Source: a virus. Taken from it: DNA of 39,745 nucleotides. Of this stretch, positions 5,572 to 6,632 are shown piece after piece. The translations under genes were made by a program, and so were the position numbers. How positions within the stretch are numbered: the first letter of the stretch is position 1; each line of letters opens with the position of its first letter. The stretch is from UHGV virus genome UHGV-0127686; one strand, written 5' to 3'. The notes below the pieces were generated by a model. That model was not told the DNA's origin. It did not search any database and saw only the letters and a list, made by a program, of their open reading frames with translations.

Positions 5572-5611
5572 TCGTAGCACGTTCTTGCATACGACGTGGC
5601 TACGGGTTTCG
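5572..5611. repeat. imperfect hairpin repeat, copy A
   Basis: cgtagcacgttcttgcatacgacgtggctacgggtttc; shares about 35 of 40 positions with the copy at 6593-6632. Confidence 0.55.
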
Positions 5612-5796
5612 AGACCGACTCGATCATCAAACGAAACATAAAATTAGCTCACATTATGAGGAAAGGTATCTTTTTGCGCTATGTAAATTCAAAGGGTTAG
5701 CCTCATTTTCCCGATGGCTTTCTCAACACTACTAGTTGTGAGCCCTTGCAATGTTCATTAATATACGTCTCACAAATAATTCACAGATATTGCAAA

Positions 5797-6570
5797 ATGG
5801 ATATTACTGAGTTTCCTTCTGGAGTAATTGAACACCTTGGCTGGTATGTATACCGATTGATTGATCCTAGGGACGGAAGCACCTTCTATGTAGGGAAAGG
5901 CAAAGGTAACCGCGTATTTGCCCATATGCGCGGTGAAGTGGCAGCGGCTGATGATGACGAGTTACTGAGCAACAAGCTAAAGCAAATCAGAGAAATAAGA
6001 TTAGCGGGACTTGATGTTATCCATGTCATCCATCGACATGGAATGACTGATGAAAAGACGGCGTACGAAGTTGAAGCAGCACTTATTGATGCCTACCCTG
6101 GGTTAACGAATATCATGAATGGTGCTGGCAGCAATGAATTCGGCGCCGCGCATGTCAAAGAGTTGATAGCAACATATCAACCCGAAACCATAACATTTCA
6201 TCATAAAGCATTAATGATTTCCGTTAACAGAAGTGCAAAGGATTCAGAGCTTTATGATGCGGTTCGATTTAGCTGGCGCATTAATGTCTCTCGCGCCAGC
6301 CAAGCAGAAGTCATTCTTGCTACTGTAAGGGGGATCGTTCGAGGGGTTTTCATTGCTGATAAATGGCTCAAATCAACACGTGAAAATTTCCCTACGATGA
6401 AATACTGGGACGAGGATCCGGACTTTGAGGCAACACAAAGTTCTCGCTATGGTTTTGAAGGTCGAGAAGCCCCACCTGAAATAGCAAATCTTTATCTTGG
6501 AAAAAAAATACCAGATGAATTAAGAAAAAAAGGAGCTATGTCCCCGGTCCGTTACTCACCTAATTTTTGA
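5797..6570 (+). CDS. GIY-YIG domain protein with uncharacterised C-terminal region (cargo)
   Basis: From internal ATG at 5797 (track ORF 5746 begins with TTG); [29 protein letters not shown] resembles the UvrC-type GIY-YIG core; downstream [11 protein letters not shown]...N fits the catalytic Glu/Asn region. Confidence 0.55.
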
Positions 6571-6592
6571 GTCTTTAAGTGATAAGCATAAA

Positions 6593-6632
6593 CCGCAGCA
6601 CGATCTTCTTGCATACGACGTGCTACGGTTTC
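6593..6632. repeat. imperfect hairpin repeat, copy B
   Basis: gcagcacgatcttcttgcatacgacgtgctacggtttc, abutting the pin stop codon; agcacg/cgtgct stem around a conserved ttcttgcatacga loop. Confidence 0.55.

Follow-up and report, generated by a model that had tools for sequence, protein, structure and literature searches.

A conserved stem-loop family at a variable cargo junction of lambdoid and e14-like prophages

How do two similar hairpins come to stand on either side of a single phage gene, and what are they? The question is raised by UHGV virus genome UHGV-0127686, a stretch of 39,745 nucleotides (nt) that was analysed as a whole and is called the window here, in which two imperfect hairpins in direct orientation flank a GIY-YIG gene, identified below as the defence gene CMoRE, the second of them lying beside pin, the gene of a serine DNA invertase. 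An earlier note on this DNA had proposed that the pair could delimit an inserted cassette, be the recognition site of a nuclease or be an RNA structural motif. The answer reached here is that both hairpins belong to a conserved stem-loop family, hereafter H, located at one variable junction of lambdoid/e14-like prophages. As to its role at that place, the best explanation, which we hold to be somewhat probable, is that of a terminator-like stem-loop doubling as a recombination joint in a cargo hotspot, an analogue of the stem-loops of T4-type phages known as PeSLs.

A conserved stem-loop family at a variable junction

The two copies share an exact 17-mer, TTCTTGCATACGACGTG, which forms a direct repeat at 5582-5598 and 6606-6622 with a spacing of 1,024 nt. 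When up to three mismatches are allowed, these are its only two matches in the whole window, whereas shuffled windows contain a mean of 0.10 matches and none of 100 shuffles contains two or more. The earlier description of two direct copies of about 40 bp around the 5797-6570 gene is borne out, together with the positions that it gave for this gene and for the distal copy abutting the pin stop codon. Beyond the 17-mer, the similarity (aligned by eye) spans about 40 nt, with around 33 of 37 bases equal and three indels, the alignment rows being GTCGTAGCACG---TTCTTGCATACGACGTGGCTACGGGTTTC for copy 1 (5571-5610) and ACCGCAGCACGATCTTCTTGCATACGACGTG-CTACGG-TTTC for copy 2 (6592-6632). Copy 2 sits in the 60-nt gap between the convergent stop codons of the CMoRE gene and pin, the latter (6631-6633) lying 1 nt past the copy.

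The shared 17-mer is the H-family consensus, and more than 120 viral contigs carry it exactly. The consensus of the family consists of a stem of 13-14 bp, ACCGCAGCACGTT / GACGTG[N]CTGCGGT, in many cases with a single bulged base, and of a 9-nt loop, CTTGCATAC. Both window copies fold as had been claimed, although much of what had been taken for a conserved loop between the stem arms is itself stem. As a 66-nt RNA, copy 1 reaches -25.2 kcal/mol (z -3.15) on the + strand and -26.3 kcal/mol (z -3.45) on the - strand, and copy 2 reaches -18.4 kcal/mol (z -2.95) and -25.0 kcal/mol (z -3.68) respectively, both hairpins being stabler than shuffled controls on either strand. Isolated 44-nt members of the family fold at about -15 to -24 kcal/mol, and thereby possess the stable, G+C-rich stem-loop of an intrinsic terminator. 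Copy 1 belongs to the GTCGTAG/CTACGG subtype, and copy 2 has a C6596.A6625 mismatch that becomes a G.U pair when read on the - strand. A full-text literature search for the H sequence returned no match.

At window 5502-5610, about 108 nt of non-coding sequence form a conserved block, with copy 1 as its 3′ end. The borders of this block do not change between lambda, HK97, HK633, K-12 and several prophages, and no fewer than eight kinds of left context occur; most commonly, the stop codon of a dinI-like gene lies on that side. By itself, the block has over 2,000 matching E. coli records and 136 matching phage records, the latter including HK97, HK106, mEp460, phi80, phiP27 and many Stx phages. 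In HK97 it begins 4 nt past the annotated sib site. In lambda it lies at about 24.2 kb, between ea31 and ea47, and a second, more diverged hairpin is found 1,589 nt off, between ea47 and tfa; ea47 is therefore bracketed in lambda as CMoRE is in the window.

The chromosome of K-12 has one copy of the block, between ecpE and ykgJ, and 4,952 of 5,426 E. coli genomes (~91%) keep this arrangement undisturbed. Since the K-12 block is preceded by the remnant of a dinI-like pseudogene (tblastn E 1.3e-4; 84.9% nucleotide identity over 152 nt), the K-12 copy is an old prophage fossil; in MG1655, the pseudogene, the block and the hairpin together occupy L345:5225-5446. In some viral contigs a partial ykgJ stands directly past the hairpin, which suggests that ykgJ may once have been prophage cargo. 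Outside Escherichia and Shigella, only a diverged Citrobacter copy and contaminating lambda DNA were encountered, in a noisy scan of genome contigs: the degenerate pattern, with about 16 specified bases, was run against 596 Gb and gave almost only chance matches, the useful ones being limited to E. coli, Shigella and Citrobacter loci and the lambda contamination. Identical lambda sequence, in contigs of at most 48.4 kb, is present in Pseudomonas, Chromatium, Pseudoxanthomonas, Kitasatospora and Enterococcus assemblies and in a Chromatiales metagenome-assembled genome (L018, L041, L050, L065, L077, L102, L111), most likely as control-DNA contamination. In several genomes, the NCBI pipeline annotates an 81-nt "capsid protein" pseudogene fragment on the - strand of the block (window 5508-5588; L346:3609-3689), probably an artefact spread from a spurious open reading frame (ORF).

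The hairpin is under selection as a structure. In order to avoid selecting for the hairpin sequence, copies of H were gathered by their left flank, which yielded 43 distinct hairpin variants, or 60 with a looser flank match. Their arms co-vary, as in the pairs CCGCAG/CTGCGG, TCGTAG/CTACGG, GCGGTAC/GTACCGC, CCGCCG/CGGCGG and GCAGCCTG/CAGGCTGC. In an alignment of 35 diverse sequences comprising block and H, compensatory double changes occur in 6 of the 12 helix pairs, and 26 cells are changed on both sides, against 4.4 +/- 2.5 in shuffles, none of 500 shuffles reaching 26. Furthermore, 94% of the cells pair, compared with 28-44% when the partner columns are slid. The earlier idea of an RNA structural motif is right insofar as a conserved structure with compensatory changes exists; its wobble pairs lack a strand bias, a point that is taken up below. 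Two variants from viral contigs (L344/L255-type versus L278-type) keep the outer stem CCGCAG/CTGCGG around unrelated loops, TATTCTGCCATGACAAGTTG and TAACTTGTCATGGCAAGACA, which are mutually reverse complementary, so that the interior of the hairpin would have been flipped.

In turn, the sequences that follow H are highly variable. To the right of the same block and hairpin, more than 20 unrelated neighbours are observed, including pin or tfa directly, or else + strand cargo: CMoRE, a 3.1-kb type II restriction-modification (R-M) system, ea47, a 649-aa ORF, membrane proteins and a hydrolase. Judged by eye, the 649-aa ORF is likely a DUF262/GmrSD-type enzyme. A second H closes the far end of five cargo types, namely CMoRE, the R-M system, ea47, a 334-aa ORF and a 222-aa ORF. 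H is thus common and dispersed, and it is tied to cargo boundaries in general rather than to the gene that it brackets in the window. The refuting case named in the earlier note, that of a common dispersed repeat, therefore applies by half. In some viral contigs an array is found in which block and H are followed by the R-M system, a partly deleted block with the right half of H, CMoRE, H and pin. At the junction from R-M system to CMoRE (L002:2990-3010, L162), the block and the left hairpin arm are deleted, GCRTA of the upstream block being joined to GCATA of the loop at a microhomology, and in L190 an undeleted block with H is duplicated around the 334-aa ORF.

Strain ST540 carries a single hairpin at this place. 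Compared with ST540, the window is 97.5% identical on the left side of H and 88.0% on its right side, the drop falling exactly at H. The ST540 hairpin, GTCGTAGCACG-TTCTTGCATACGACGTG-CTACGG-TTTCATTTATC, combines the left arm of copy 1, whose loop is also the same, with the right arm of copy 2, and has a perfect 9-bp outer stem. Most pin-side hairpins have the CTACGG right arm whatever their left arm; this gives rise to mismatched hybrids, one of them being copy 2 (C.A), and in these each arm follows its own outer flank. A synthetic empty junction, made by joining window 5409-5598 to 6623-6900, was searched in the 5,426 E. coli genomes, and block, H and pin were found contiguous, without the 1,024-bp interval, in 113 of them. 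The best of these junctions is 96.3% identical (L347), and ST540, with a pin side at 88%, is accordingly not a truly isogenic empty site. The interval from repeat to repeat is therefore an indel, as the idea of a cassette had foreseen, although the pair itself was not made by insertion, its members being of different subtypes. Among the matches listed, pin alleles at least 95% identical to that of the window are always accompanied by CMoRE.

A proposed terminator-like joint and its alternatives

The usual place of H is after a + strand unit (a dinI-like gene, HK97 int/sib, K-12 ecpE or CMoRE) and before opposed tail-fibre/pin genes. At this junction of an int/dinI/sib end with a tail-fibre/pin end, H may act as a factor-independent terminator or as a protective structure at RNA 3′ ends, closing + direction transcription units that head toward the opposed tail-fibre/pin genes. 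Copy 1 would close the 108-nt block, and copy 2 would travel with CMoRE and separate it from pin. As one of the few sequences common to unrelated modules, H could also offer a short patch of homology through which cargo is joined to new neighbours, and we infer homologous or microhomology-mediated recombination as the joining mechanism.

Several members of the family are directly followed by TTTTTCTTTT on the + strand, for instance downstream of CMoRE where it faces tfa, and in that context the textbook form of a + strand intrinsic terminator is found (...CGTGTCTGCGGTTTTTCTTTTTT). At least five T occur within the next 9 bases in about 26 of 61 distinct H contexts. An indirect indication of RNA 3′ ends at H comes from Rfam, where one variant, read on the other strand, is the terminal hairpin of the small RNA CssrB described below. 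The earlier statement that neither window copy has a T-run is right in part. Copy 2 runs into TTTCATTTA when read on the + strand and into TTTATGCTTAT when read on the - strand, and other members have the tail just mentioned; a consensus terminator scan calls neither window copy.

Several points weigh against the explanation by a terminator that doubles as a joint. The same scan passes over both copies, the loop being longer than 8 nt and the T tail of copy 1 (GTTTCGAG) poor. A T-rich tail is absent on either strand in lambda H and in about one third of the contexts, which implies that the conserved feature is the hairpin and not a complete intrinsic terminator, and termination at H is something that we infer rather than demonstrate directly. 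The 9-nt loop and the 70-nt upstream part of the block are more conserved than a plain terminator requires. Outside the loop-closing pair, the non-Watson-Crick pairs comprise 26 G.T and 20 A.C; in the absence of a strand bias, no particular RNA strand is indicated, and a role at the DNA level would be compatible with the data. Finally, the cargo types other than the five named above end in unrelated terminators, so that H on both sides is not needed for the insertion of cargo.

A first alternative, unlikely in our judgement though the least unlikely of them, is that the 108-nt block with H constitutes a small RNA, or a functional 3′ untranslated region (3′UTR) of the dinI-like gene, with H as its terminator. 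Conservation would then stem from a function of the RNA, for instance in base-pairing or protein binding, and the link to cargo boundaries would be incidental; the two explanations overlap, a terminator role being compatible with both. The sharp and constant borders in at least eight left contexts with ~90% conservation, the position directly past the dinI-like stop codon in the commonest context and the fossil copy kept in 4,952 of 5,426 E. coli genomes speak in its favour. Moreover, on the opposite strand, one H variant is the 3′-terminal hairpin of a known small RNA family, CssrB of Rfam (RF02799, the chromosome-encoded Shigella sRNA B), with a full match of 230 bits at L037; at a permissive threshold, the window copies align to this terminal hairpin on the - strand with 24.5 and 21.8 bits, below the gathering threshold of 76. 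A possible second helix, CTGG/CCAG (window 5520-5563), would enclose 33 nt upstream of copy 1, and two sequences show compensatory changes from G-C to A-U in it; given that only one of its four pairs is so changed, it argues weakly for a larger RNA structure. Against a small RNA stand the facts that the block, searched on both strands, has no Rfam match at E <= 10, that a scan of 5300-7300 on the + strand predicts no promoter-like site, within the block or elsewhere, and that copy 2 has no block at all. At gathering thresholds no Rfam family is matched in the window, at the permissive threshold nothing but the CssrB terminal hairpin emerged, a literature search on CssrB returned unrelated papers only, and no link between the block and the prophage Pas small RNAs was found in the literature.

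More doubtful is a broader proposal in which the block and H together form an element in its own right, either a lox-like site at which a recombinase would swap cargo or a regulatory RNA derived from the 3′UTR of dinI-like genes. If true, it would account for the sharp borders, the conserved 9-nt loop and the survival of the fossil in ~91% of E. coli chromosomes and of the element in lambda.

Decidedly unlikely, in view of the evidence that follows, is that H serves a tyrosine integrase as a DNA recombination site, either as an attachment core or in the manner of lox. The enzyme would bind the 13-bp inverted arms, crossover would take place in the 9-nt spacer, and the mosaic joints would result from exchange between one H and another, as in attP x attP recombination or attC capture. 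Inverted arms and spacer of these sizes do resemble recombinase core sites, the position of H, with int on one side and the tail-fibre genes on the other, is that expected of attP, and the lack of a strand bias in wobble pairs is what a DNA-level element predicts. The comparison of the window with empty sites also looks like one of attL/attR with attB, with a shared 17-bp core and differing arms. In addition, the GenBank record of HK633 (NC_019719) labels its block attP. This label was given by similarity to the ykgJ-ecpE region of K-12, which is no plain attB but a prophage fossil holding the dinI-like remnant; similarity to the fossil probably explains the label, and the finding of the pseudogene weakens the lead toward an attP core. 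Lambda and HK97 carry H and have their attP core elsewhere, no recombinase is consistently adjacent (CMoRE and its H stand beside pin or tfa), and inspection of the sequence showed no intI, attI or GTTRRRY motif. Furthermore, the junctions vary in position, falling in the core, at the base of the left stem or in the right arm (CTAC..CGG), and duplications of the whole block with H, together with the deletions at microhomologies, point to general recombination.

The bracketed gene and the origin of the pair

The 257-aa product of the bracketed gene matches PD-T4-3 of PADLOC over its full length (E 2.8e-140, residues 1-256), the LEM-3_GIY-YIG domain of Pfam and the crystal structure PDB 9U75 (E 2.5e-172, residues 1-257), the latter being CMoRE of E. 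coli O157:H7. PD-T4-3 has been renamed CMoRE, and it is a type IV restriction endonuclease that degrades DNA containing 5-hydroxymethylcytosine (5hmC) or glucosyl-5hmC (5ghmC) (PMC12923530), protecting its native hosts against T-even phages (bioRxiv 10.1101/2024.12.20.629700). The modified phage DNA is targeted via a C-terminal sensor domain. The gene is thus defence cargo that has already been characterised, and neither a homing nor a structure-specific nuclease. In unrelated contexts, matches to the CMoRE module start at window 5587-5603, and among the matches listed an H-family hairpin lies 3′ of CMoRE in nearly every context, beside pin or tfa. No consensus promoter was called by the scan in the CMoRE leader. 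CMoRE loci are present in 807 genomes.

That the hairpins should be sites for one of the neighbouring enzymes, either recognition or homing sites of the GIY-YIG nuclease or crossover sites of the Pin invertase, is very improbable and already contradicted by the distribution data. It is suggested by the position of a GIY-YIG gene between two like hairpins, by the invertase gene abutting copy 2 and by a core half, TTCTTGCATACG, that equals a pix half-site, TTCTCCCAAACC, at 8 of 12 positions. CMoRE, however, depends on the modification of phage DNA, is also found without the left hairpin, and is missing from thousands of loci that carry H, including lambda, HK97 and the E. coli core chromosome, which disposes of the earlier idea of a nuclease recognition site. 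As for Pin, pix sites are inverted pairs of 26-bp elements, each with two inverted 12-bp half-sites (TTNTCNNAAACC) around a 2-bp core, whereas the H copies are direct, resemble one half-site at the 8 positions mentioned and have no second one, hence no dyad, and H occurs in phages devoid of pin (lambda, HK97). The probable pix sites lie elsewhere, as 20-nt inverted repeats at 7247-7266 and 9130-9149 that are 95% complementary (AAACGTTGGTTTGGGAGAAG / CTTCTCCCAAACCAAGGTTT) and flank a 1.86-kb invertible segment, with the tail-fibre C-terminal and assembly genes, beside pin.

The origin of the pair can be approached from the left edge of the CMoRE module. In O157:H7 strain 86-24, ...TTTTCGAGACCG is preceded on its left by the 62 nt from the 3′ end of serU, with the same sequence as in K-12 (L127:2963-3025), no complete tRNA being present at this locus left of CMoRE. 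It follows that TTTCGAGACCG, at window 5607-5617, is what is left of an old serU attachment site and makes up the 5′ edge of the module. The right arm of copy 1 merges into this remnant at a microhomology (H: CTAC--GGTTTC; tRNA: CTACTCCGGTTTTC). In O157:H7 the remnant is in place and CMoRE has no left hairpin; elsewhere, the module is found with its distal H and other left neighbours. Given that the two window copies are of different H subtypes, that O157:H7 is without the left hairpin and that the 17-mer is simply the consensus of the family, the pair is not a duplication made by an insertion.

The most economical history would start with a serU-integrating, pin-carrying phage that had the order att, CMoRE, H and pin. 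The CMoRE module, made up of serU remnant, leader, gene and H, would then have joined the block and H of another prophage at the microhomology CTAC..CGGTTT, and further exchanges in H, or in pin, would have led to the present arrangement. A junction at this microhomology would give the look of a cassette between direct repeats. Scarcely credible is the idea of a target-site duplication, or of a small transposable cassette whose terminal repeats the hairpins would be, which the direct orientation, the 1,024-bp interval and the single-copy empty sites might suggest: the arms differ (GTCGTAG...GCTACGGG versus ACCGCAG+ATC...CTACGG, with three indels), each being a separate widespread subtype, the shared 17-mer occurs exactly in the many viral contigs mentioned above, O157-type loci lack the left copy and R-M-type loci have lost half of it, and the interval has no transposase, its only gene being CMoRE. 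The features of the locus are collected in Table 1.

Table 1. Features of the window at and around the pair of hairpins
Feature	Position	Strand	Details
Upstream part of non-coding block	5502..5570	+	starts (A/G)TAAAATC, ends at hairpin copy 1
Hairpin H copy 1	5571..5606	+	left arm 5571-5583, loop 5584-5592 (CTTGCATAC), right arm 5593-5606, bulged G 5599
serU anticodon stem-loop remnant, tRNA-Ser(CGA)	5605..5617	+	reverse complement GGTTTCGAGACCG; overlaps end of copy 1 right arm
CMoRE upstream leader	5618..5796	+	accompanies gene in every context seen
CMoRE / PD-T4-3, GIY-YIG type IV restriction endonuclease, 257 aa	5797..6570	+	PADLOC, Pfam and PDB matches
Hairpin H copy 2	6592..6629	+	left arm ACCGCAGCACG plus 3-nt ATC insertion (6603-6605), right arm CTACGGT
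pin, serine DNA invertase	6631..7221	-	Pfam Resolvase + HTH_7; annotated pinE in related genomes

Other features were seen in passing. A first GIY-YIG-like gene (window 4438-5382, 210 aa) is cut by a 2-bp (TA) deletion near 5066 in comparison with a 314-aa homologue in strain 2009C-3133, a carrier of this prophage, and a 51-aa ORF at 5225-5380 is the out-of-frame C-terminal part of this homologue. Upstream of the prophage end, at 2891-3570, the ORF translations suggest by eye a toxin-antitoxin pair like YeeU/YeeV (CbeA/CbtA). Genes for tRNA-Thr and tRNA-Asn lie at 32.3-32.5 kb (32339-32494). Matches to IS009 of Rfam fall inside tfa of lambda and its relatives (L129:3305-3503).

From a practical perspective, the analysis bears on several likely misreadings of such loci, which are corrected here: the attP label of HK633, the "capsid protein" pseudogene calls on the block and the view of the GIY-YIG gene as a homing nuclease.

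Comparison with known systems

Imperfect hairpins in direct orientation that delimit cassettes, sometimes in arrays, recall the attC sites of integrons. However, attC sites measure 57-141 nt and have R''-L''/L'-R' boxes and GTTRRRY, whereas H measures 36-38 nt, has no R/L boxes and ends in GGTTTCA on its 3′ side. Unlike in integrons, the H loci have neither an integron integrase nor attI, their neighbours being dinI-like genes, pin and tfa, the cargo has its own leaders and the junctions vary. An identity of H with attC was rejected on these grounds of missing intI/attI, wrong size and absent motifs.

The sib/tI region of lambda is similar to H in that conserved hairpins lie just past attP on the leftward transcript. 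It differs in sequence, and lambda H stands a further 3 kb to the left, flanked by ea31 and ea47. A typical RNase III site would need a longer stem than the 13 bp of H. The likeness to CssrB resides in its 3′-terminal hairpin, an H member on the opposite strand to which both window copies align; in the window, unlike in CssrB, this terminal hairpin alone aligns and the body of the RNA is absent.

In lambdoid phages, the concept of the "moron" designates an accessory gene that is set between conserved phage genes and equipped with a leader and a terminator of its own. The CMoRE site shares this organization with morons and with the hotspots of P2/P4 (Rousset et al., 2022, PMC9122126). As in the P2/P4 defence hotspots, one position accommodates varied defence genes, here CMoRE, the type II R-M system and the 649-aa ORF, the last being likely of the DUF262 type by eye. 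The present hotspot differs in extending from the dinI/sib block to tfa/pin and in having its int-proximal edge marked by the H family. The family, even in lambda, thus marks the edge of a hotspot where CMoRE and R-M systems are swapped. If recombination does take place at H, it would also provide a search handle for new cargo and defence genes in E. coli prophages.

The closest parallel is offered by the PeSLs (promoter-early stem-loops) of T4-type phages, conserved promoter-terminator stem-loops around cargo ORFs that mediate modular shuffling (Arbiol et al., 2010, PMC2839356; Comeau et al., 2014, PMC4122927). PeSLs have a strong sigma-70 early promoter within the motif, while the scan of 5300-7300 recognised none with H, and they are spread genome-wide, while H is located at one junction of temperate lambdoid/e14-like prophages. 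Furthermore, copy 1 is tied to its 70-nt upstream block, and many cargo genes of the hotspot have H on one side only. What the two share is a short conserved non-coding motif with a terminator-type stem-loop, present as direct repeats around non-essential cargo ORFs in a hyperplastic region. Like PeSLs, H is repeated around cargo and coincides with the breakpoints of indels and replacements, which suggests that modules are shuffled by recombination between copies of the motif. Were such recombination at H to occur, it would constitute the temperate-phage counterpart of PeSL shuffling in T4-type phages.

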